64,000 bases of DNA from an uncultured Desulfobacteraceae bacterium (GTDB taxonomy: Bacteria > Desulfobacterota > DSM-4660 > Desulfatiglandales > B25-G16). Within the stretch, counting starts at the first letter, position 1; every line of letters begins with the position of its first letter. The notes below the pieces were generated by a model. It was not told the DNA's origin. It saw only the letters and a program-made list of their open reading frames with translations, and made no database searches. The translations under genes were made by a program, and so were the position numbers. Below are positions 1-58,993 of this stretch, piece after piece. The stretch lies in the NCBI GenBank assembly GCA_964611035.1, contig CAZSWT010000012.1, positions 89-64,088 on the forward strand, given 5' to 3'.

Positions 1-604
1 TTTCTTTCGGTGAAAAAACAAGACAAACATCCAGAGGAAAGTCGCACTTTCGAGTCTCCCGCAGATCTTGTTGTTTTCTACAGATGCAATCTCGCAGCTC
101 AAACGATTTGGCTTGGAGTATTAAGGGTTTGATGTCATCATAGGGAAGAATAAACTCAGTTTTAACTGTTCCCTGCGCCGGAACAACGCGGTGCAGCGCT
201 GGCTCATAGCGCATTATCCCTTCTGCTCCGCCTTCATTCCAATATTGTTCACAAAGATGAGCCAGCTCATGGTCCATGATATCCCATTGTTCCTCGTAAA
301 AACCAACAACGAATGGAGCGAGCCGGAATCTCTTTATCCCATCTCTTTTTGTTGAGCCCCATATAATACCCTTGCCCACCATTGTCTTAAGTCTTGTCTC
401 AATTTCTTCCTGTGAGAGCTTGGACCGTTCCGCTATTGCATCGATTGCCTCACTTGTGCCAGTCATGTTACTTGCCACTAATGCTTCTTTGGGCGAAAAT
501 ATTTTCTTGAGGATCTGCAACTCAACACCAGAGGCAGTTCTCGGGAATCCTCCGGGCAGGAGATCTAAGGCATAGGCTAATTTTTTGTATGCATCAACAC
601 TCAT
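1..604 (-). CDS. Putative Fe-S cluster-binding protein; 5' part of the gene is present and the 3' end runs off the left edge (partial)
   Basis: Not in the ORF track because it has no stop in the window. Reverse-strand ATG at 604-602 is preceded by GGAG. My by-eye translation MSVDAYKKLAYALDLLPGGFPRTASGVELQILKKIF...RDCICRKQQDLRETRKCDFPLDVC stays open to position 1. The Cys-rich distal part looks like cluster ligands. It lies 16 nt downstream of the C_GCAxxG_C_C gene on the same strand. Confidence 0.5.
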   Translation of the reverse strand, partial: MSVDAYKKLAYALDLLPGGFPRTASGVELQILKKIFSPKEALVASNMTGTSEAIDAIAERSKLSQEEIETRLKTMVGKGIIWGSTKRDGIKRFRLAPFVVGFYEEQWDIMDHELAHLCEQYWNEGGAEGIMRYEPALHRVVPAQGTVKTEFILPYDDIKPLILQAKSFELRDCICRKQQDLRETRKCDFPLDVCLVFSPKE

Positions 605-620
605 CTTAATGCTCCTTATG

Positions 621-1103
621 TTATAGGGTTCCTTTATCTGCCATCTCGATACATTTATTCACTACGAACTTCAAAAAAATATCGCAGGTATTTTTCCAGC
701 CTTTGTTTTGGATAAACCGATTAAGCTCTTCTGGATTACTCCAATCACAGTTGCAGAGTTTCTTACAGTCTGTACTGCCAAATTCTTTTAAAAAGTCACT
801 ATAAAGCTCGGACACAGCATGAATGGCCTTGTTTCTTTCCTGTTCATGCTCCTCCGGGATGCCTTCTTTGCCTTGACCGCAGCGAAGGCCAATAGCTATG
901 CTACTGCCAATCAGAAGACCACATGTAGTTTGTCCAGACGAAATGGCCCCCATATATCCAGCAGTAGCCCACGAATATCCTTTTGGTGGTAAGTCCCACA
1001 TGGCCTGCAAGCCTTGCAAGCTGGCTTCAGCTCACGTATAGAGATGCATCCTTTTATATGCCTTGGTTAAAACATCCTCAAAAAAATCTAAATCTTTTAT
1101 CAT
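621..1103 (-). CDS. C_GCAxxG_C_C-family putative redox protein; candidate selenoprotein with in-frame TGA at 1034-1032
   Basis: The tracked ORF (621-1019) has TCGLLIG, STDCKKL and NTCDIF, matching the GCAxxG, C and C positions of the family. ATG at 1103-1101 with AGAGGTGA upstream reads MIKDLDFFEDVLTKAYKRMHLYT-TGA-AEASLQGLQAMW in the same frame. This places the TGA where the first conserved Cys is expected. Confidence 0.6.
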
Positions 1104-1168
1104 GATCACCTCTTTTTATTTATCCATAGAATAAAAAATTCCTTCATTGGGTTCTGGCCGCATGGAAT

Positions 1169-1456
1169 TTATTCCGTCCCCTCTTTTGTATCATTTATGT
1201 TCGGTTGGTCTTTAATGAACGAGCGAATGAGGTTTGTCCCGCTGAAGTGGTCCAGGGTAATACAGGTAATGGCTCTCTCCGGACCTAATAATGTACGTCG
1301 TATTTTGCTGTAACTCGATTTCTGTCTATAATGTGACAGGATGCGTTCTCCAAGTTCCTTCAAGTACTCAATCTTGCGAATGATCTCATTGTGTGGGGTT
1401 TTACGGAGTAGAAAAAGTATAGGAGAGAAGGGATTGTGTGTCAAAAGAAAAAACAT
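1169..1456 (-). CDS. Hypothetical protein (95 aa)
   Basis: ORF track only. I recognise no family. Confidence 0.3.
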   Translation of the reverse strand: MFFLLTHNPFSPILFLLRKTPHNEIIRKIEYLKELGERILSHYRQKSSYSKIRRTLLGPERAITCITLDHFSGTNLIRSFIKDQPNINDTKEGTE

Positions 1457-1944: not shown

Positions 1945-1973
1945 TTGACCGGTAACATATGCTCATCTATATT
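1945..1973 (+). promoter_or_regulatory. Sigma70-like promoter for the dehydratase gene
   Basis: TTGACC (1945-1950), a 17-nt spacer, then TATATT (1968-1973). It lies ~47 nt upstream of the ATG at 2020. Confidence 0.5.
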
Positions 1974-2019
1974 TCTTTTTTTTATGAAAGGTAATTACAA
2001 TCAAACAGAGGAGGAAAAA

Positions 2020-3465
2020 ATGGCCATAAAAACAGTAGATGAATATCGAGAAAGAATTTCCAAACTGAAACCGAGGCTTTTTATAGGAGGGAAAAAGGTT
2101 GAGAAACTGGCTGATCATCCAATTACAAAGGGGGTTATTGAGGCAACAGCAAAGGTCTATGAGCTCACCCTGGATCCTCAATATGATGATATCATGACAG
2201 CAAAGTCTCATCTTACAGGTGAAACTATCAGCAGAAGCCTGCATATCCATCAGAGCACTCAAGATCTTGAGAAACGCCTGGAGATGGCCCGCTTGAGCAG
2301 CCAAAAGTTAGGGACCTGTAACTACCGCTGTCCCGGAAATGAGATGCTTCCAGTCCTGGCAGCCACAACATGGGAGATAGATAAAGATAAAGGAACGGAG
2401 TATTATAAAAGATTTACGGAATACCTCAAGCATTCCCAGAGAGAGGATTTGGTAGTGAGTGGATCTGTTACTGATACAAAGGGTGATAGGAGCAAAAGAC
2501 CCCTTGATCAGGATCCCGATTCCTATGTACATGTCGTGGAAAAAAAATCAGATGGCATTATTGTTAGCGGGGCAAAGCAGCATACTACTGCTGGATATGC
2601 AGCCGATGAAAACCTTATACTTCCTGGCCTTTCCTGCAGGAGAGGAGAAGAAGATTATGCCCTCGCATTTGCTGTACCAAATGGGTCTGAAGGAATAACA
2701 TATATAGGCCAGTACAATCCGTATAGTGTAGAAAGGGAGTATGCAGATGATATACGTTATGTAGGAAATCCTATATATGGACAGAGGGAGACATGCCTCA
2801 TAGTCCTTGATAGGGTATTTGTCCCTTGGGAGAGGGTATTCATGTGCGGTGAGATTGAATATACGCAAAAGTTTATCAGGAGATTTGCAAAGACCCACAG
2901 AATGAACTGTGGTGGTGCTTGCAAGGTAGGTTTTATGGATCTGATAATTGGGGCAACTCAGCTTATTGCAGAATATAATGGTATTTCAAAGGCATCACAT
3001 ATTGTAGATAAGATAACCAGGATGATAAAGTTAAACAATACATCACTGGCATGTGCTATTGCTGCTGCGCATATGGGAAAGGAAGAGCCAGTTGGTTCCG
3101 GTGTCTTTATGCCAGATGAAACAATGAGTAATCTTGCAAAACTAGATACCAATGATGGCTTCTGGGAGGTAATTGCCCTTGCAGGGGATATAGCAGGTGG
3201 AATAGCAGTTACTATGCCAGGTGAGATGGAGCTTGAAAACCCTGAGATAGATAAATATGTTTCTAAATATCTTAAATCTGCTGTAAGTGCGAAAAAGAGG
3301 ATGAGGATTGCAAGGTTTATCCAAAACTGGGTGGCAGGGCTTCATGGCGTTGCTACATATCAGGGTGCAGGTCCAAGCCAAAATGAGATGTTGATCCTTT
3401 ACAGGACAACAGATTTAGAGGAAAAGAAAAGGATGGCCGAGGAATTGGCTAATACATATAATTAA
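2020..3465 (+). CDS. 4-hydroxybutyryl-CoA dehydratase / vinylacetyl-CoA isomerase family protein (AbfD/HpaB superfamily)
   Basis: The N-terminus MAIKTVDEYRERISKLKPRLFIGGKKVEKLADHP is typical of the family. The CNYRC (CxxxC) motif fits the AbfD Fe-S ligands. I prefer the ATG at 2020 (GAGGAGGAAAAA upstream) over the track start at 1945. Confidence 0.75.
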   Translation: MAIKTVDEYRERISKLKPRLFIGGKKVEKLADHPITKGVIEATAKVYELTLDPQYDDIMTAKSHLTGETISRSLHIHQSTQDLEKRLEMARLSSQKLGTCNYRCPGNEMLPVLAATTWEIDKDKGTEYYKRFTEYLKHSQREDLVVSGSVTDTKGDRSKRPLDQDPDSYVHVVEKKSDGIIVSGAKQHTTAGYAADENLILPGLSCRRGEEDYALAFAVPNGSEGITYIGQYNPYSVEREYADDIRYVGNPIYGQRETCLIVLDRVFVPWERVFMCGEIEYTQKFIRRFAKTHRMNCGGACKVGFMDLIIGATQLIAEYNGISKASHIVDKITRMIKLNNTSLACAIAAAHMGKEEPVGSGVFMPDETMSNLAKLDTNDGFWEVIALAGDIAGGIAVTMPGEMELENPEIDKYVSKYLKSAVSAKKRMRIARFIQNWVAGLHGVATYQGAGPSQNEMLILYRTTDLEEKKRMAEELANTYN

Positions 3466-6500: not shown

Positions 6501-7056
6501 TTTCTCTCAATCAGGTCATATAAAGGCTATTGGCTATGAACTATATCTAAAAATGATAGAACAGGCAATTGCGGAGCTAAAAGGAGAGGTATGGCAAGAG
6601 GAAATATTTCCTGAGATACATACTGATTTACCAGTTTTTATTCCTCACAGCTATATTGAGGAGAGTGATGTCAGGCTGGATATATACAGACGCTTATCCG
6701 CCATTAAGGGTAAACATGAATTAAAGGAGATGGTACGGGAAATAGAAGATAGGTTTGGACCCTTGCCCAAAGAGGTTGTAAACCTTATCTCTGTTATTAA
6801 GATAAAGATAGGCCTGAAGAAAATTGGCTCAACAGTGTTAGACATTAAAAATGATTATATGATCTTTTCCTTCTCTAAGGATACCCATTTATCACCATCT
6901 GACTTGATTGATTTAGTTTCCAGTCATCCGGATAATTTCTCATTCTTATCCGATCAGAAACTCAAGGTTGTGAGAGAGAAAAAGAGATCCTTTTCTACCC
7001 TTGGAGAGGCAGAGGAGATAGTAAATCAATTTGATCGCTATATCGTAAAAAATTGA
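3562..7056 (+). CDS. mfd: Transcription-repair coupling factor Mfd
   Basis: 1164 aa. Has a CarD-like segment (GDLVVHRDHGIGRYGGL), helicase motifs (GDVGFGKTEV, DEEQRFGV) and a TRCF C-terminal domain. Confidence 0.95.
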   Translation: MSDKRDNLSILKKGIKDKIRLIDVTGLTGSALAYLLSQLLIEVDHPCLMVFPNSEEAGKFYKDLDFFLSNQNNGPSPDLRRIFFFPSYDISPLTGLSPPKELVRQRIEALYALSTLRDAVVVTSLEAIMSRLLPKKILLNSVDYIAINEEIDRDDLIKKLISFGYLRTSLVEERGDFAVRGGVIDLYAPLYDSAVRIEFWGNTVESIRLFNPVNQRSKFDLKELIILPANEIILGPSNITRARSMGRLPSTLESGGNFPGIEAWLHHFYSSLDSIFSYLPKEGHICVTQSDTFIERARPILEKLNNETARFRDECLEKGKPFPQTDNNFLEIQELKVSIAGYQKISFFDFTIKSTFKKEGLAVDFKESVMPDMEYESRDITHPKVSLTPLAVKVKTWIDEGNQIVLVCRTSQQAGRLREILLNYQISVKEIFPDWSRIKRKRGLYICLGYLSQGLRFTASNLIIITEDEIFGEKRGGKRRKKEDRVQAIPWTGFSQLQAGDLVVHRDHGIGRYGGLLKMEISSRIRDFVIIEYAGNDRLYIPADRINIIQKYIGLDEDNPQLDRLGGRSWPLAKKKARRAIEEIAKDLVKIYAMRKLLRGFSFSKADNYYREFEANFDYEETPDQIKVIDDVLSDMESDRPMDRLICGDVGFGKTEVAMRAAFKAIMDGKQVAVLSPTTVLAEQHYQTFSKRFDSYPFRIAVMSRFVSKPEQKKVIGDLSLGKIDIIIGTHRILSDDVVFKDLGLFVIDEEQRFGVKDKEKLKKYRNSVDIIAMTATPIPRTLHMSLMGVRDLSIIKTPPADRLSIQTYVSRFDEDIISHAIEKELERGGQIFFVHNRVQTIEIMADTLSRLVPNARIDIAHGQMKERDLEKAMIKFLARETDVLVCTTIIDSGLDIPSANTIIINKVDRFGLAEIYQLRGRVGRSNVKAYAYLLVSDGSHLTRDAQKRLKVLMDFSCLGSGVNIALNDLRIRGGGNILGFSQSGHIKAIGYELYLKMIEQAIAELKGEVWQEEIFPEIHTDLPVFIPHSYIEESDVRLDIYRRLSAIKGKHELKEMVREIEDRFGPLPKEVVNLISVIKIKIGLKKIGSTVLDIKNDYMIFSFSKDTHLSPSDLIDLVSSHPDNFSFLSDQKLKVVREKKRSFSTLGEAEEIVNQFDRYIVKN

Positions 7057-7259: not shown

Positions 7260-8288
7260 ACTATGATAGATTTTAGGTTGTAAGGAAGTCCCTCAAGGGT
7301 TAATAAACCCGAAGATAAAAATCTTTAAAAAGGAGGAACTTCCTATGGCAATTAAAGTAAAGAGAAGCAAGATTAATTTCAAGGGAAAAATGGTTAACAT
7401 TGGTATCGACATGCATAAAAAATCCTGGCGAATCACTGCCCTTGTTGAAGGGGATATAGTTATGGCTGTAACACTTGCCAGGCCAAACTATGATTCTTTC
7501 AAGAAATTACTGGTTCAGTTTTTAGGCAATTACGTGCGCATAGTTTACGAAGCCGGTCCTGGTGGATTCGACCTATATGACAGGCTTACAGATGATGGCG
7601 TTGAATGCATTGTTACTCCTCCGTCCTTGATCCCCACCGCGAGCGGATCTAAGGTCAAAACAGATAAAAAGGATAGTTACAAGCTGGCCAGGCTGCTTGA
7701 AAGCAATATGCTTAAGCAAGTATGGGTCCTTTCTCCTGAAGAAAGGGCTCACAGGCAGTTGGCAAGGACCAGACGGCAGATAGTTAATCATCGTTCAGAT
7801 GTCATGCGCCAGATCAAGAGCCTGCTCTTGTTTCACAGCATCGAAATCCCTTTCTCAAGTCGCCAGCAGTGGACTGGGCCTTTTACAAAATGGCTTCATG
7901 GGCTCGATCTTGGCGATGAATACCTCAACAAATCACTTGAGGCCTTGATCAAGCTTTTCGATTATCTGAGCATTGAGAAAAAGAGCCTGACCCACGAGGT
8001 CATTAAACTGGCCAGGGAAGAAAAATATGCATCAAGGGTAAAGCTCCTTAAAAGTGTACCTGGTATCGGGGCATTGAGCGCTATGGAGATCCTGGTTGAG
8101 CTTCAGGATATCGCTCGTTTTAAAACAGCCGATGAGCTTGCTGCCTACCTTGGCTTGACACCATCTCAACATTCTAGTGGAGAGCATACCAGAATGGGAC
8201 ATATAACCCATGCAGGCAATGATAGGGTAAGAACCACGCTGGTTGAATCCTCCTGGATCTTGATTGGAAAGGATCCTGAAATAAAAAA
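7260..8288 (+). mobile_element. IS110-family insertion sequence (minimal extent; the right boundary could instead be 8500)
   Basis: The flanks TAGTATAG| and |GAAATCCC rejoin to the sequence seen at the uninterrupted unit junction at 8501-8516. There is no target duplication. The element carries a DEDD-type transposase. Confidence 0.75.
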
Positions 8289-8334
8289 GAAATCCCATTT
8301 TTTAGACAGGATAGACGGGATGTTCAGGATATAA
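7345..8334 (+). CDS. IS110-family (DEDD / Transposase_20) transposase; the C-terminal 14 codons are read from the flanking repeat
   Basis: Motifs NIGIDMHKKSW, YEAGPGGFDLYDRL, KTDKKDSYKLARLL and LKSVPGIGALSAMEILVELQDIARFKTADELAAYLGLTPSQHSSGEH. The tail SHFLDRIDGMFRI* is encoded by repeat-unit sequence. Confidence 0.85.
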   Translation: MAIKVKRSKINFKGKMVNIGIDMHKKSWRITALVEGDIVMAVTLARPNYDSFKKLLVQFLGNYVRIVYEAGPGGFDLYDRLTDDGVECIVTPPSLIPTASGSKVKTDKKDSYKLARLLESNMLKQVWVLSPEERAHRQLARTRRQIVNHRSDVMRQIKSLLLFHSIEIPFSSRQQWTGPFTKWLHGLDLGDEYLNKSLEALIKLFDYLSIEKKSLTHEVIKLAREEKYASRVKLLKSVPGIGALSAMEILVELQDIARFKTADELAAYLGLTPSQHSSGEHTRMGHITHAGNDRVRTTLVESSWILIGKDPEIKKKSHFLDRIDGMFRI

Positions 8335-19866: not shown

Positions 19867-20118
19867 ATGTCAGTTGTTACTACATCAAGCCGGGGGCAGA
19901 TCGTCATTCCCAGAGATGTGAGAAAGCAGCTTCAAATCGGTCCAGGGAAAAAGGTCCTGATCAGGGCTGAAGGGGATAGGGCAATTCTTTTCCCGCTTCC
20001 TGATGATCCTGTGGATCATTTCTGCGGTATCTTTCAGAAAGGAACATCACTTACAAAGGCACTTTTGGCCGAGCGGGGAAAGGAGCGAGCTCGTGAAGCG
20101 AAAAAGATTACTGGATAG
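19867..20118 (+). CDS. vapB: AbrB/MazE/SpoVT-family antitoxin
   Basis: SRGQIVIPRDVRKQLQI looped-hinge-helix motif. It overlaps the PIN gene. Confidence 0.8.
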   Translation: MSVVTTSSRGQIVIPRDVRKQLQIGPGKKVLIRAEGDRAILFPLPDDPVDHFCGIFQKGTSLTKALLAERGKERAREAKKITG

Positions 20119-20503
20119 CTTTGCCATGATTGTTTATTTGAATAAAGAGAAGGGTTTTGAAAAGGTACGTGATGTAATGTCTGAGGCTCAGAAATCGGGT
20201 GACCATGTTTTGATGAATGAGATAAATGTGGGGGAAGTCTATTATATTCTTTTCAGAAAAAGGGGGCCAGAAAAAGCTGACTACTTCATAGAGACAATAC
20301 TTGCATCACTACCGATTCTTACAGTCTCGAATGGTTTTGATGATGTGATTAATGCTGCAAAAATTAAGGCAGAGCATCCTCTCTCCTTTGCCGATTGTTT
20401 TGCTGTTGATACGGCCCGCAAATATAATGCCGTTATCATGACAGGGGATCCGGAATTCAAAAAGATAGATCAGCTTGTTGAAATAGAATGGCTCGATAGA
20501 TAA
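20093..20503 (+). CDS. vapC: PIN-domain toxin VapC
   Basis: A GTG start at 20093 gives VKRKRLLDSFAMIVYL (conserved Asp near the N-terminus). FADCFAVDTA and MTGDPEF are typical PIN acidic positions. Confidence 0.8.
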   Translation: MKRKRLLDSFAMIVYLNKEKGFEKVRDVMSEAQKSGDHVLMNEINVGEVYYILFRKRGPEKADYFIETILASLPILTVSNGFDDVINAAKIKAEHPLSFADCFAVDTARKYNAVIMTGDPEFKKIDQLVEIEWLDR

Positions 20504-20686: not shown

Positions 20687-21061
20687 AGATCAAAATTGAC
20701 CAATATTTGCCGAAAGCTCTATTATCTCTCACAGAGAGCACAGGGGACACAGAGCTATTAAAAAGCGAACATACAGAAATGAAGGAGTCACTTAAAAGGC
20801 CAATGGTAATACCTTAAAGGGCAAGAATAGGCTCGCTTATTCTTGCCCGCAATGGGGGCTCTCCATTGCTTCCGATTTGAATTCATCGGATGCCCGCTAA
20901 ATGGGCCTTTTATGCGATTTTATCAATTCCATTTTAGATTCTCCACTGTGATCTCTGCCTGCCCCGTTAAATGCGAAGCATATTTAACTGGGGAGAACTC
21001 AAGCGACCAGAGGGAGCGGGCGAGGGCAATCTATAATACTATCCGTAATTGGGAGGATATT

Positions 21062-21334
21062 ATGGAACAAATCGGGATAAGAGACAAAGCGTTGCCAATA
21101 TTGAAATCTTCTATAGCTTTAAAAGAGAAGCTACTAAAAGCAAAATCGAAGAGCTACCGCAAGCGTCTAAAAATATTTGAAAAAAAACATAAAATGAAGT
21201 CTGAGCACTTCATAAAAGAGTTTAACGCCGGTAAGCTTGGTGACGATGCAGAATGGTTTGATTGGCTCTTTGTATATGAAGCATACAACAGAGTAACAGA
21301 GCAGGAAAAAATAATAGAAGGGCTTTCACTGTGA
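21062..21334 (+). CDS. Small coiled-coil protein, probable antitoxin partner of the DUF6516-like gene
   Basis: ATG at 21062 with GGGAGG upstream. It overlaps the next gene by 4 nt (GTGA). The longer track ORF (from 20843) translates repeat sequence. Confidence 0.5.
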   Translation: MEQIGIRDKALPILKSSIALKEKLLKAKSKSYRKRLKIFEKKHKMKSEHFIKEFNAGKLGDDAEWFDWLFVYEAYNRVTEQEKIIEGLSL

Positions 21335-21708
21335 CCATTCGCTATTTTGAAAAGGTCAAAAAGAGAATAGCTAAATTGGAGTGGTTAATAGAACGGAAAA
21401 GTATTGATACTGAGTATGACGAAGACGCTGATGTTGGTTACATTGGAGGGTATATAAACTTCAAGGATGGTTCCATATTTCATTTCAAAGAAATTCTATT
21501 TGGACAGAACAGGCATTATAGATTTCACTATATGGATGAGAAACACAATCTAATATCCAGATGGGATACTGCGCCGCATCACAAGAAATTGAAAACTTTT
21601 CCTTATCATGTCCATTTACCTGATGGTGTGAAAGAATGTAAACCGGTTACACTTAATGGTGTCCTTGATAGGATAGAAAGCATTGTCATTGATAGATTAG
21701 AGGAGTGA
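21331..21708 (+). CDS. DUF6516 / TumE-like toxin-family protein
   Basis: RWDTAPHHKKLKTFPYHVH matches the RWDNAPHH...FPHH.H signature as I remember it for this family. Confidence 0.5.
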   Translation: MTIRYFEKVKKRIAKLEWLIERKSIDTEYDEDADVGYIGGYINFKDGSIFHFKEILFGQNRHYRFHYMDEKHNLISRWDTAPHHKKLKTFPYHVHLPDGVKECKPVTLNGVLDRIESIVIDRLEE

Positions 21709-45131: not shown

Positions 45132-45158
45132 AGATTAATCAATCCGGAAGCATAGAAA

Positions 45159-45455
45159 ATGGCAAAAGGATCAAAAACTCCAGCGTCTAGAAAGTGGTCA
45201 GCAAAAGTTACCCATGAGAGCTATGCACTGGATCTGGAAGAAGGTGTCTTTACCTGGAGAGATCCAAAAAGGATTGCACTGTCACTTAAGAAGTCGGCAG
45301 ATACCAGCAAGCACCGCAAGGCTCCGCCGTTTCGTTCTGCCATGTCCATGCTGGTATTCTATATTAATCGAGCAGGTAAGAATTTGGACAAGGACCAGAA
45401 GCGTATTTTGGAAAAGGCAAAGGATGAGTTGCGCAAATTATATTGTAAGGTCTGA
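45159..45455 (+). CDS. DUF3175-family protein
   Basis: 98 aa, basic, with the pattern THESYALDLEEGVFTW...SAMSMLVFYINRAGKNL as I remember for DUF3175. Confidence 0.55.
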   Translation: MAKGSKTPASRKWSAKVTHESYALDLEEGVFTWRDPKRIALSLKKSADTSKHRKAPPFRSAMSMLVFYINRAGKNLDKDQKRILEKAKDELRKLYCKV

Positions 45456-45683
45456 TAATTCTGTGCGGCTTGAATGGACCGATCATCCGAATCCATCGGC
45501 TAACATTCCGGCGAAGACGGGCAAGGTCGTGGAACTTTGAGCTTTTAACAAATTTTGGGTTTATTTGGCATTAACCAAGGCCTCTTTACCCTGCTCGCTG
45601 GTGATGGTGGACGTTCAAGTAAGCCTTCGGCAGGTGTTTCATGAATTTGACAATGTAGTCAGCCCTTGACGATAGACATTTTC

Positions 45684-45970: not shown

Positions 45971-46198
45971 ATGATCACAGTTTCAGCAACAAAACTAAGA
46001 AATAATCTGTTCAATTATCTTGATAAAGTTGCAGAAGGAGAGACGGTTGTGATTCAGCGTAATAATCACGAAGTTGCACGCTTGCTTCCTTTACAAAAAC
46101 CTAACTGGCGCAATAATATGAGCATAAGGCCTAAAATACTCGTATCTTCGGATGAATTAATTAAACCCATCGAAGATATTTGGGAGGATTACGTTTGA
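45971..46198 (+). CDS. Phd/YefM-family antitoxin
   Basis: MITVSATKLRNNLFNYLDKVAEGETVVIQRNN is typical of Phd/YefM. Confidence 0.85.
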   Translation: MITVSATKLRNNLFNYLDKVAEGETVVIQRNNHEVARLLPLQKPNWRNNMSIRPKILVSSDELIKPIEDIWEDYV

Positions 46199-46593
46199 AG
46201 AAAGATTCTTATTTATTCGATACACATGCCCTTATTTTTTGGAGCAATAAAGAATCGGTATCAGATGATTTTATTATTTTCTTTGATAAGCAGGAACAAA
46301 AAGGCAATATTTTTGTGTCCTCCATTTCATTTTGGGAAATCGCTTTACTGGTTAAAAAGGGTAAAATTGAAATGAGAGATATTCATGCCTGGAAAAATGA
46401 AATACTCACCAATACCAATATTGAATTGATCGATCCAACAGCATCGGAAATGATTGATTCAACTCTCTTACCTGATCACCATAAAGATCCTTTTGATCGC
46501 TTATTGATTGCCCAGGCGTATAGTCATCAATTGTTGTTGGTGACAAAAGATATTTATATTCAAAAATACTCCATACAAACTTTTTGGATATAG
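46180..46593 (+). CDS. vapC: PIN-domain toxin VapC
   Basis: YLFDTHALIFW...SFWEIALL...DPFDRLLIAQA. Overlaps the antitoxin 3' end. Confidence 0.85.
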   Translation: MGGLRLKKDSYLFDTHALIFWSNKESVSDDFIIFFDKQEQKGNIFVSSISFWEIALLVKKGKIEMRDIHAWKNEILTNTNIELIDPTASEMIDSTLLPDHHKDPFDRLLIAQAYSHQLLLVTKDIYIQKYSIQTFWI

Positions 46594-55443: not shown

Positions 55444-55941
55444 ATGAAAGTACTGGTAGTAGATCCCCTAAAATGTTCAGGGGGTAAATCATGCGAGCTT
55501 GCCTGCTCCTTTGAACAAACAGGTAAGTTTAACATTGCAGATTCACGGATAAAGATACACTTCTTTCCCGAACAGATCAATTTCACGCCAACTGTCTGCA
55601 TGCAGTGCAGGGATGCGTACTGTGTGCAGGTATGCCCTACAGGTGCTTTAAGCAGGCGTAAAGAAGATGGCGTTGTGTACCTTGACCAGAATAAATGTAT
55701 CGGGTGTAAACAGTGTATTGTTGCCTGCCCATGGGGATCTGTGAAACTTGATCACGCTGGGGAGACACTGATTAAGTGCGACACGTGTGGGGGGGATCCG
55801 GCATGCGTAAAAGTTTGTACCTCCGGTGCCCTCAAATTTGTTGAAGCAGATGAGGCTGTGCTTTCAAAGCAAAGAAACACAGCAGAAAAGTACATGAAAA
55901 TTGCTGAACAAATGGCAAAAGGGGGTGATGTAAATGCTTAA
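55444..55941 (+). CDS. 4Fe-4S polyferredoxin-type electron-transfer subunit (AorA-like)
   Basis: Four CxxCxxCxxxCP-type clusters. Overlaps the AOR gene by 8 nt. Confidence 0.85.
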   Translation: MKVLVVDPLKCSGGKSCELACSFEQTGKFNIADSRIKIHFFPEQINFTPTVCMQCRDAYCVQVCPTGALSRRKEDGVVYLDQNKCIGCKQCIVACPWGSVKLDHAGETLIKCDTCGGDPACVKVCTSGALKFVEADEAVLSKQRNTAEKYMKIAEQMAKGGDVNA

Positions 55942-57742
55942 AGGCTTTAACGGAGTAATACTTCGAATAAATCTGACAAAAAAGGAAGTACAGAGAGAGG
56001 AAATCAATGAAGAATGGGCGAAGCTTTTTATAGGCGGCAGAGGGTATGGTGAAAAGATAATCTATGAGGAAGTCGATCCAAAAATTGACCCTTTATCTGA
56101 AGAAAATAAGGTAGTTATTGCTACCGGTCCTATCGTTGGGACCACGGCTCCGGCCTCCGGAAGAATCATGGTTATCACCAAGGGCCCGCTCAATAATACC
56201 CTCGCCTGCTCCAATGCCGGCGGATATTTTGGAATCGAACTCAAGATGGCGGGCTATGATATGATTATCCTCGAGGGAAAGGCCCCTGAGCCCGTGTATC
56301 TCTGGATTGACAATGATGAGGTTGATATCAGAAGCGCCAAGGATATGTGGGGGAAGACAACAATCGAGACAGATAAAGTATTGAGAGAAAATACCCATAT
56401 CGAAGCCAAGACCATGGAAATTGGTCCTGCAGGGGAAAAACTGTCCAAAATATCCGGTGTTATGTTTGATGGTCATCGGGCATCAGGCAGGACCGGCGTG
56501 GGTGCAGTGGTAGGAAGCAAAAATTTCAAAGGAATCGCTGTGAGGGGTACAAAGGGGGTTGAGGTAGCAGATGTAGAAGGATTCAAAGAGGCAGTAAAGA
56601 ATGCCTACGGCAAGTTAGCTGCCCATCCCGTTGCATCTGAAGGTCTTCCCACCTATGGTACTGCTGTGTTGATGAATATATTGAATAATGTTGGCTCCCT
56701 GCCCACGAAAAATGCCCAAGACGCATATTTCCCAAACGCAGATAATATATCCGGTGAGGCAATGGTGAAAAAAACATTGATAAGAAAGAAAGGATGTGGA
56801 GGCTGCCCCATTGACTGTGGAAGGGTAACCGAGATTAGAGAGGGAAAATACAAGGGAGATCACGGAGAAGGCCCGGAATATGAGACAGCCTGGTCAATGG
56901 GGGCAATGTGCGGCGTTGATGATATCAATGCAGTTACCAAGGCCCATTATCTCTGCGATGAGTACGGGCTTGATGGGATATCCGCGGGCGTGACCATTGC
57001 CTGTGCAATGGAACTGTATGAGAAGGGATACATGCCAAAAGAGGACGCCCCATTCCCGATAAGGTTTGGTGACGGCGATGCTGTTGTTGAGCTTGTAAAA
57101 CTCATGGGCACAAGAGAAGGATTCGGGAATCTACTTTCTGAAGGTTCTTACAGACTTGCTGAACACTACGGGCACCCTGAACTTTCAATGAGCGTTAAGA
57201 AACAGGAAATTGCGGCCTATGACCCGAGAGGGGTCAAAGGTATCGGCCTTGAATATGCCACGTCAAATAGGGGCGCATGCCACGTACGAGGCTACACCAT
57301 CGCACCAGAAGTATTGGGCACGCCCATACAGGTTGATAGACTCGCCTATGAAGGCAAAGCTGACTTGGTAAAACTCTTTCAGGACTTGACCGCTGCCGTT
57401 GATGCATCCGGAGCCTGCCTGTTTACGACGTTTGGTATGGAGGCGGCCAATTACGCAGAACTTGTCACGACAGCAACCGGGATTCCCTACGATGAGAAAA
57501 ACCTTCTCCTTGCCGGGGAAAGGATCTGGAATCTTGAGAGGCTCTTCAATTTAAAAGCTGGACTCACCACAGAGGATGATACCCTGCCAAAGAGGTTCAT
57601 TGATGAACCAATCCCATCCGGGCCATCAAAGGGTGAGGTGAACGAGCTCCCTAAAATGCTTCCGGAGTACTACAAGGTGAGAGGATGGGATTCTGAGGGG
57701 AGGCCAACTGACGATAAACTTACGGAGTTAAGCCTGAAGTAA
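55934..57742 (+). CDS. Aldehyde:ferredoxin oxidoreductase family (tungstopterin) catalytic subunit
   Basis: AOR N-terminal domain (GFNGVILRINLT), CGGCPIDCG cluster ligands and an AOR C-terminal domain. Confidence 0.9.
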   Translation: MLKGFNGVILRINLTKKEVQREEINEEWAKLFIGGRGYGEKIIYEEVDPKIDPLSEENKVVIATGPIVGTTAPASGRIMVITKGPLNNTLACSNAGGYFGIELKMAGYDMIILEGKAPEPVYLWIDNDEVDIRSAKDMWGKTTIETDKVLRENTHIEAKTMEIGPAGEKLSKISGVMFDGHRASGRTGVGAVVGSKNFKGIAVRGTKGVEVADVEGFKEAVKNAYGKLAAHPVASEGLPTYGTAVLMNILNNVGSLPTKNAQDAYFPNADNISGEAMVKKTLIRKKGCGGCPIDCGRVTEIREGKYKGDHGEGPEYETAWSMGAMCGVDDINAVTKAHYLCDEYGLDGISAGVTIACAMELYEKGYMPKEDAPFPIRFGDGDAVVELVKLMGTREGFGNLLSEGSYRLAEHYGHPELSMSVKKQEIAAYDPRGVKGIGLEYATSNRGACHVRGYTIAPEVLGTPIQVDRLAYEGKADLVKLFQDLTAAVDASGACLFTTFGMEAANYAELVTTATGIPYDEKNLLLAGERIWNLERLFNLKAGLTTEDDTLPKRFIDEPIPSGPSKGEVNELPKMLPEYYKVRGWDSEGRPTDDKLTELSLK

Positions 57743-57784
57743 AAAAGAACGCTTGCTGTAGATTCCTACGAACAGGAGACTTCT

Positions 57785-58993
57785 ATGAAATACCTTATCA
57801 TTGGAGGCAGTATCGCAGGGCTCTCGTGTGCACGAAAGATACGAGAGCTCGAGAAAGACTCCGACGTTGTTATTCTCTCCGAGGAGGAGAGAGCCTACGC
57901 AAAGATGGCCCTCCCGTATCTCCTTGCGGGAGAAAGGGATATATGGCTTGACGTGCCAGCAGGTGTGGAGTTTCTCGGCAATAAAAAAGTGACAAATATC
58001 TCTCCAGACGAGAAGAAGGTCATTACAGAACAAGGGGAGGATTTTATTTTTGACAAACTCCTTGTAGCCTCTGGAGCGGGGGCGGCAGTTTCCGAATTCA
58101 AGGGAAGCGCCTCTCCCGCTGTATTTACCGTGAGAAACCTTTCTGATATCCAGGGTATACAAAACAGATTGAAGAAGGCACGCCAAAAAAAAGTTATCAT
58201 CTCCGGCGCCGGCCTTGTGAGCATGGAAATGGGGGATGCAGTGCAAAAAATTGGCTTCACGCCTCTATTTCTCATATCGTCTCAGAAGGTATTCTCCATG
58301 ATACTTGATGATGCAGGAAGCGAGGTTATGACCGAGGATCTGAAAGAAAAGGGAGCAGAGATCAACTTAGGTGAGACCATTAAGGAGATCGAAACGAGAG
58401 ACGAGGAAGTACTTGTTGAGACACAATCAGGAAAGAAATTCACCGGGGATGTGGTAATCATTGGAAAAGGAGCAACTCCGAACACCGCATTTCTGGCATC
58501 TTCGGGAATCGAAATTGATCGTGGAGTGATCGTAAATAATTTCCTTGAAACAAACAAAAAAGGGATTTTCGCTGCTGGTGACGTGTGTCAGGGATATGAC
58601 ATGGTGTATGAAGAAAAAAGGGTAAATGCCCTGTGGCCTGTGGCGATTGAACAGGGTGAGCATGCGGCAATGAACATGACCCATTTCAGAATTCCGTATA
58701 AAGGAAGTGTGGCCAGGAATATCGTGACTGCCTTTGGAAATACGATTTTCACTGCTGGGCTTTCGAGGGGCAATGAATTAGAAACCTATCAACGGAGAGA
58801 AAAGAAACGCTACTCGAAGATTGTAGTAAGGGATGGTTGCCTTGTGGGGGCCATATTTATCAATGTGGATATTGATCCAGGAGCCTACCTCTTTGCAATA
58901 GAAAGAAAGGCAGAGGTTTCTGGACTTAAAGACGTTATGCTCTTAGGTTCCCTCTCTTACACTCACCTTTTTCCTTTCCTCAGAGGGGCGTAA
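57785..58993 (+). CDS. FAD/NAD(P)-dependent pyridine nucleotide-disulfide oxidoreductase (AorC-like)
   Basis: Two Rossmann motifs (IIGGSIAGLS, ISGAGLVSME) and GDV near the FAD site. Confidence 0.8.
   Translation: MKYLIIGGSIAGLSCARKIRELEKDSDVVILSEEERAYAKMALPYLLAGERDIWLDVPAGVEFLGNKKVTNISPDEKKVITEQGEDFIFDKLLVASGAGAAVSEFKGSASPAVFTVRNLSDIQGIQNRLKKARQKKVIISGAGLVSMEMGDAVQKIGFTPLFLISSQKVFSMILDDAGSEVMTEDLKEKGAEINLGETIKEIETRDEEVLVETQSGKKFTGDVVIIGKGATPNTAFLASSGIEIDRGVIVNNFLETNKKGIFAAGDVCQGYDMVYEEKRVNALWPVAIEQGEHAAMNMTHFRIPYKGSVARNIVTAFGNTIFTAGLSRGNELETYQRREKKRYSKIVVRDGCLVGAIFINVDIDPGAYLFAIERKAEVSGLKDVMLLGSLSYTHLFPFLRGA

Follow-up and report, generated by a model that had tools for sequence, protein, structure and literature searches.

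A C-GCAxxG-C-C family gene with an in-frame TGA

The stretch of DNA analyzed here, hereinafter the window, comprises 64,000 nucleotides from an uncultured, sulfate-reducer-like Desulfobacteraceae bacterium (GenBank assembly GCA_964611035.1, contig CAZSWT010000012.1, positions 89 to 64,088), and near its left end, on the minus strand, it carries a gene of the C-GCAxxG-C-C family (PF09719) whose reading frame contains an internal TGA. The full gene (621..1103) runs from an ATG at 1103-1101 to a TAA at 623-621 and amounts to 160 codons, of which codon 24 is the in-frame TGA (1034-1032), very probably a selenocysteine (Sec) codon. Between the ATG and the TGA lie 23 codons (MIKDLDFFEDVLTKAYKRMHLYT), and after the TGA the same frame continues as AEASLQGLQAMW...; a hairpin resembling a bacterial Sec insertion sequence (bSECIS) follows at 1003..1021. 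The TGA, the upstream ATG, the hairpin coordinates and the motifs TCGLLIG, STDCKKL and NTCDIF, all pointed out in the original prediction, are exact in the sequence, and all three motifs are found in the protein. Only the codon at 1019, which had been taken for a Met, is actually a TTG (1017..1019); picked by mechanical open reading frame (ORF) calling, it is an artefactual start that yields a protein of 132 amino acids.

A Shine-Dalgarno-like sequence (AGAGGTGA, 1106..1113) lies upstream of the true start codon (1101..1103). The position of this ATG is kept in relatives, and the natural Cys-containing homologues P0001 and P0002 start at the same place. In an alignment of 11 TGA-bearing sequences, every one has a purine-rich site of the GGAGG/GAGGTG type 5′ of the equivalent start, with the start codon shifted by one codon in a single locus (L010). 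Codons 2-23, which ORF calling overlooked (IKDLDFFEDVLTKAYKRMHLYT; 1035..1100), show coding-like variation and invariant residues: in the same 11 sequences the variable columns upstream of the TGA number 10, 9 and 22 of 23 at the first, second and third codon positions, respectively, and the core codons 11-23 display 231 synonymous vs 108 nonsynonymous pairwise codon differences. The Thr codon immediately before the TGA varies among them (ACG/ACC/ACT/ACA) and the TGA itself is constant. Six residues of this segment (L12, Y16, R18, M19, H20, and Y22) do not vary among 69-70 homologues, both bacterial and archaeal. Extending the ORF from the 132-aa version to the upstream ATG raises its PF09719 score from 46.3 bits, with the match beginning at profile position 16, to 54.7 bits, with the match beginning at position 1; with Cys placed at codon 24, the extended protein covers profile positions 1-117 of 118 and lies well over the cut-off of 27.

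The claim that the TGA occupies the place of the family's first conserved Cys stands: the corresponding column is Cys in 69 of 69 full-length homologues, including P0001 (93% identity) and P0002 (86%), and the natural full-length proteins read ...AYKRMH(L/R)YT-C-AEASLQ... across it. The four conserved positions of the family occur in the expected order as U24, C61, C113, and C140, invariant across 70 sequences, with the central motif being a variant, T-C-G-L-L-I-G, of the G-C-A-x-x-G pattern. At the nucleotide level, the TGA is present in all 23 species loci of the deltaproteobacterial type (L001-L010, L022, L024, L045, and L047-L056; 42-87% amino acid identity) and in five further metagenome contigs (L061-L065) whose proteins are about 89% identical. 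Archaeal loci have a Cys codon throughout (TGT in 31 of 32, TGC in L043), and TGC is also the codon of a single bacterial locus, L042. Two independent SRA assemblies (L057 and L058) are identical to the window, TGA included, and sequencing error is thereby excluded.

A hairpin directly downstream of the TGA

Ten nucleotides after the TGA, the mRNA can fold into the hairpin GCUUGCA-AGGCU-UGCAGGC, which has one G-U pair. RNAfold extends the stem by an A-U pair to 8 bp, leaving a GGC loop at -9.7 kcal/mol, with the 5′ arm at 1021-1014, the loop at 1013-1011, and the 3′ arm at 1010-1003; with that last pair unformed, the loop becomes A-GGC-U. This region simultaneously encodes the peptide S-LQGLQ-A. 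The published bSECIS consensus (PMC13188914) specifies a loop of 3-9 nt, a stem of 4-16 bp, a UGA-to-loop distance of 16-37 nt, and a minimum free energy of at most -7.5 kcal/mol. The hairpin agrees with each of these (loop of 3 or 5 nt, stem of 7-8 bp, spacing of 17-18 nt, -9.7 kcal/mol), bearing out the view that its spacing fits a bacterial SECIS. The same source asks for G at the first two bases of the loop, in the pattern N1-G-[G/U]-N-N2, with which the hairpin also agrees: the loops here read A-G-G-C-U in the window, A-G-U-C-U in L061-L064, and A-G-U-U-U in L047, from a MAG of Olavius Delta 1. In L061-L064 (TGA at about L061:9986) the GUC that stands for the window's GGC (1013-1011) changes the encoded LQGLQ to LQVLQ. 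The G[G/U] loop rule is coupled to the protein sequence, with the TGA forms having LQ-G/V-LQ and the Cys forms LQALL.

The hairpin is found in the same register in all TGA-bearing sequences, with pairs 14-32 to 21-25 and the loop at 22-24 (counting the U of the UGA as 1), and its stem has been rewritten by paired substitutions (UUGCAA/UUGCAA, CUGCAA/UUGCAG, CUUCAA/UUGAGG, CUGCAG/CUGCGG). Across 22 distinct TGA-bearing sequences, 94.3% of the cells show standard pairing and four of the eight stem pairs are altered on both sides; the doubly changed cells number 24, against 9.0 ± 2.2 after shuffling, and none of 500 shuffles matches the observed pairing or covariation. Sliding the 3′ partner by 1-3 columns lowers the pairing to 31-54%. 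Cys-form homologues (n=33) read in the same register reach 42% pairing, and the energy of the forced structure is positive for most of them. A covariance model made from 21 other loci, with the window left out, recovered a single strong match in the window (1034-997, minus strand; 52.6 bits, E ~1.6 × 10–18), the runner-up scoring 9.5 bits. A predicted SECIS is therefore present at precisely the place where its absence would have told against recoding.

Readings of the TGA

The host has a bearing on which recoding signal is to be expected. Many named homologues of the protein are from Asgard archaea, and we accordingly considered an archaeal origin of the window, which would demand a SECIS in the 3′ untranslated region. 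Such an origin is ruled out by the bacterial genes of the window, which encode Mfd/TRCF, two SurA-like peptidyl-prolyl isomerases, RodZ, tyrosyl-tRNA synthetase, a sigma-70 factor and RuvABC, and by the nearest loci among 185,579 species genomes, which belong to metagenome-assembled genomes (MAGs) of Desulfobacteraceae and other deltaproteobacteria (L001-L010; 65-87% amino acid identity). TGA also terminates ordinary genes of the window (e.g., the mfd ORF at 7054-7056); hence, the genetic code is standard, and decoding of a TGA inside a gene depends on a specific recoding signal.

From the observed gene structure, the correspondence of the TGA to an invariant Cys, and the conserved, covarying hairpin, we infer with high confidence that the TGA at 1034-1032 is a Sec codon directed by the bSECIS just downstream. 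By the standard bacterial mechanism, a ribosome arriving at this UGA would encounter, 10 nt further on, the mRNA hairpin (1021-1003) displaying its apical G-G/U loop at +22/+23. The loop would recruit SelB-GTP-Sec-tRNASec, and Sec would be placed at position 24 with no termination, giving a product in which Sec24 substitutes for the first invariant Cys of the family.

Several observations weigh against this reading. No selA, selB, selC/tRNA-Sec or selD was found within the 64-kb window (ARAGORN detected no tRNA, and about 58 ORFs scanned with Pfam yielded no SelA or SelB domains), and the Sec competence of the host is assumed from its relatives. The folding energy of the hairpin is no better than that of dinucleotide shuffles (z=-0.02); as the energy of the single sequence is not significant, the case for the SECIS rests on comparison. 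Rfam returned no SECIS match over 900-1150 even at E-values up to 10, and none at the gathering score window-wide, a null result that we do not count against the SECIS call because bacterial SECIS elements are too diverse. The protein scores 30.5 bits against the NCBIfam model TIGR01909 ('C-GCAxxG-C-C family (seleno)protein'), short of its 47.4-bit cut-off, and thus falls outside that subfamily model as calibrated. Neither sequence nor fold comparison points to a known function: a PDB sequence search gave no match, and the best Foldseek hit has E=3.4, with TM scores of at most 0.25. Finally, the window's two closest neighbors in sequence (L059 and L060) carry TGC at the TGA column.

This last observation underlies the most serious rival, namely that TGC has recently mutated to a nonsense TGA in the window, leaving a pseudogene or truncated gene with the hairpin as an inherited relic. 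L059 (93% identical) and L060 (86%) have TGC at codon 24 and cluster with the window in a neighbor-joining tree, TGC and TGA are one base apart, and the hairpin of L060 persists intact where there is no TGA, all of which is compatible with a very recent change from TGC to TGA. However, the identical TGA allele recurs in the two independent SRA assemblies, the relatives of about 89% identity on the five other contigs keep the TGA, and at 87-92% identity the database holds 17 clusters of the 132-141-aa short type vs two Cys clusters. The wider bacterial clade, moreover, uniformly has TGA, and both the hairpin and the two flanking reading frames of the window are intact. Taken with this evidence, we consider a nonsense mutation highly improbable.

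Less probable again is a true start at TTG 1019, by which the product would be a 132-aa protein lacking the first Cys and the 23 upstream codons would be a leader peptide or untranslated. This start is indeed the one picked by gene callers, both in the window and for about 40 database entries, and the 132-aa part passes the Pfam threshold even by itself. Yet no Shine-Dalgarno sequence precedes the TTG, which lies within the 5′ arm of the SECIS and hence in a conserved stem; the codons upstream of it vary at the third position while holding their six invariant residues; the Cys forms are all translated continuously across the site; and the residue that would be lost is the defining invariant one of the family. 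Homologues beginning at the equivalent of 1019 had been named as evidence that would overturn the Sec reading, and they do exist: of the 120 best database homologues, about 40 were called at 126-143 aa, shortened like the window's ORF, and the 132-aa entries P0003-P0019 and others share a false start of this type, one short entry bearing the NCBI name 'C_GCAxxG_C_C family protein' only. The DNA of three such calls (P0011, P0016, and the window's own 132-aa ORF), however, has the TGA and the conserved upstream frame, and these are consequently gene-calling artefacts; the remaining short calls are probably Sec forms that went unrecognised because they were started at a false TTG or ATG past the UGA.

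Downstream hairpins can promote read-through in general, and with Sec machinery not seen in the window, the UGA might be recoded without selenium (e.g., by hairpin-stimulated near-cognate insertion of Trp or Cys after loss of that machinery), but we regard this as the least likely account of all, given that the codon matches specifically an invariant Cys, that the hairpin has SelB-type features (G then G/U at +22/+23, in the register of fdhF) and tracks the TGA over relatives of 42-87% identity, and that the lineages abandoning TGA went to TGC and kept no read-through signal.

Relatives, possible chemistry and genomic surroundings

The Sec reading places the window gene in known company. C-GCAxxG-C-C was already named among the selenoprotein families in 2007, and reviews of 2022 (PMC9312934) and 2026 list it too; with Sec forms of the family known since 2007, the present finding is a correct annotation fix and not a discovery. 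Zhang and Gladyshev, 2007 (PMC1976440) describe a 'putative redox protein' selenoprotein family from the Olavius delta-1 symbiont, with three genes, Cys homologues and predicted bSECIS elements, and PMC13188914 tabulates a 'form 1' of the C-GCAxxG-C-C selenoprotein. The window gene resembles this Olavius algarvensis form 1 in several ways: it has the PF09719 domain and a deltaproteobacterial host, its only Sec aligns with Cys in homologues, and a predicted bSECIS comes right after the UGA. A MAG of Olavius Delta 1 (L047) has its TGA in exactly the alignment column of the window's, through which we infer that the Sec position is the same as that published in 2007. Against the Olavius-type group (L047-L056), however, the window protein is of a different subfamily: it is 42-48% identical, reads AYKRMH-L/R-Y-T-U-AEASLQGLQ, and has UUGCAA/UUGCAG in the stem vs CUUCAA/UUGAGG. 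In short, the window gene adds an unannotated member to a selenoprotein family already known, and its subfamily is distinct from the Olavius-type group.

Two other known systems offer comparison. The SECIS of Escherichia coli fdhF (sequence verified against 5,419 E. coli genomes) is likewise a hairpin within the coding sequence straight after the UGA, with GG at +22/+23 and UGCA at +26 to +29; in contrast to it, the window's 5′ arm is without the bulged U, the loop is GGC or A-GGC-U vs GGUC, the third loop base is C/U vs U24 of fdhF, and there is no conserved extended lower helix, the alternative 5′ hairpin proposed by RNAfold not being conserved. The best NCBIfam match of the protein is to the HUGP/GUXX-star fusion selenoprotein (NF045501; Haft and Tolstoy 2025, cited in PMC13188914), with 81.8 bits over model positions 13-157, indicating a homologous N-terminal domain. 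This score is far below the model's 325-bit cut-off; unlike the fusion, the window protein has 160 amino acids vs 236 model positions, one UGA and not two, and neither the C-terminal GUXX-star part nor the HUGP motif, which places it outside that family.

Beyond the bacterial Sec clade, the nearest homologues are Cys forms from Asgard archaea (Heimdall-, Hod-, Hermod-, Thor-, and Promethearchaeota) and Bathyarchaeia (within L011-L046). These archaeal orthologues (e.g., P0049, Heimdallarchaeota; P0055, Promethearchaeota) are 54-69% identical to the window protein over the full 160 amino acids, with the same six Cys positions and an N-terminal AYKRMHRYT-C-AEASLQ; they differ in having TGT (TGC in L043) for TGA, LQALL for LQGLQ, and no hairpin. 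Their hosts belong to another domain of life, where a SECIS of the bacterial type is not expected to be functional. Closer to the window, L060 (110-592) combines TGC with a hairpin identical to the window's (-8.9 kcal/mol), and L059 (233-715) combines TGC with a partly decayed one (-3.4 kcal/mol); judged by their sequences, both are apparently recent Sec-to-Cys converts with a relic SECIS. The unusually high inter-domain identity, for its part, suggests horizontal transfer that may have been coupled to a Sec/Cys switch. We raise only tentatively the idea that the subfamily records repeated, recent Sec/Cys switching, also across domains of life; the pattern would fit transfer between sediment Desulfobacterota and Asgard archaea, where the SECIS would be useless and Sec would give way to Cys, a scenario which, like the switching idea as a whole, we hold to be possible but on balance doubtful. 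The neighbor-joining tree has three groups and no outgroup and does not resolve the direction between bacteria and archaea. Should the switching idea be true, the family would lend itself, as a compact natural system, to dating the decay of a SECIS and to studying what Sec contributes in a protein without a solved fold.

As for annotation, the gene had been mis-called as a 132-aa protein without its key residue, about one-third of its closest database relatives are equally short, and restoring the first invariant Cys/Sec position adds one selenoprotein to the organism's count. New here are the covariation-supported SECIS model for the subfamily, the apparent relic SECIS hairpins in fresh Cys converts, and the Asgard archaeal Cys forms as the nearest non-bacterial homologues. 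No second selenoprotein was found in the window, its other TGA-bridged frames being non-coding or overlapped by real genes of the opposite strand (e.g., 45139-45675), and the SECIS covariance model found no second site there.

The AlphaFold model computed for P0001, a natural Cys form (93% identical), is all-helical (pLDDT 83, pTM 0.80). Residues 24, 61, 113, and 140 each lie at a helix N-terminus in this model, residue 24 on helix 2. The protein would most likely be small, soluble and engaged in redox chemistry or metal handling, with Sec24 serving its four-residue Sec/Cys center as the reactive nucleophile or as a metal ligand. A family member is abundant and acetone-induced in Desulfococcus biacutus (PMC4103992); these data show that such proteins are expressed, without indicating a role.

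The next gene on the minus strand, whose 5′ part is seen at 1..604 before the window edge cuts it, has its ATG at 604-602, 17 nt past the selenoprotein stop, and an AAGGAG at 617-612. The visible 201 amino acids (the N-terminal ~200) have no Pfam or NCBIfam family match. The orthologue in L061 has 352 amino acids (L061:10416-11474) and L057 carries an identical downstream gene; the L057 and L061 proteins contain a CNCCGCCC cluster and two CxxCxxCxxxC ferredoxin motifs (Fer4), confirming the description of this neighbor as an Fe-S-type protein. The CNCCGCCC cluster is unusual, and a CxC...C...C cluster is also there. The two genes are probably co-transcribed in the window organism. They are adjacent, however, only in the window's own clade (L057-L064, at least 86% identity) and in the Asgard locus L043 (30% identity); no such adjacency is seen in the other 55 species loci, and the flanking genes differ in the other bacterial loci. 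We therefore reject a conserved operon as a general feature, it being restricted to this tight clade and L043, and the suggestion that the two form a small redox module has correspondingly little support.

On the other side, the spacer at 1104-1944, between the selenoprotein gene and an HpaB-like gene, is the product of a ~3.8-kb deletion relative to the syntenic L061, which has three extra genes there, coding for proteins of 484 and 455 amino acids and a metallo-β-lactamase (MBL)-fold protein. The segment 1405-1104 is a 3′ remnant of the MBL-fold gene, and the 95-aa ORF at 1169-1456 is therefore probably not a real gene. A sigma-70-like match on the minus strand (TTGACA-17-TATACT, 1416..1444; 11 of 12 consensus positions), which sits at the junction of this deletion, is a candidate promoter of the gene pair by consensus match.

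On the plus strand, the window has several genes of other kinds. An IS110-family transposase (DEDD_Tnp_IS110 and Transposase_20 domains) at 7345-8334 comes directly after mfd. Several toxin-antitoxin-like pairs lie at 20003-20503, 20843-21708, and 45971-46593; their members are a PIN-domain protein, a TumE toxin preceded by a partner of 163 amino acids, and a second PIN-domain gene overlapped by a small antitoxin-like ORF. At 55444-58993 the gene for an aldehyde:ferredoxin oxidoreductase (AFOR_N and AFOR_C) clusters with those for a 4Fe-4S dicluster protein and a pyridine nucleotide-disulfide oxidoreductase, all complete ORFs with no internal TGA. The HpaB-family protein (HpaB_N and HpaB domains) bordering the spacer, at 1945-3465, scores 153 bits vs the 480-bit NCBIfam cut-off for 4-hydroxyphenylacetate monooxygenase, and in an anaerobe we think it more likely to be an enzyme of the 4-hydroxybutyryl-CoA dehydratase type; the listed TTG start of its gene is probably too far upstream, because the Pfam match begins at residue 30.

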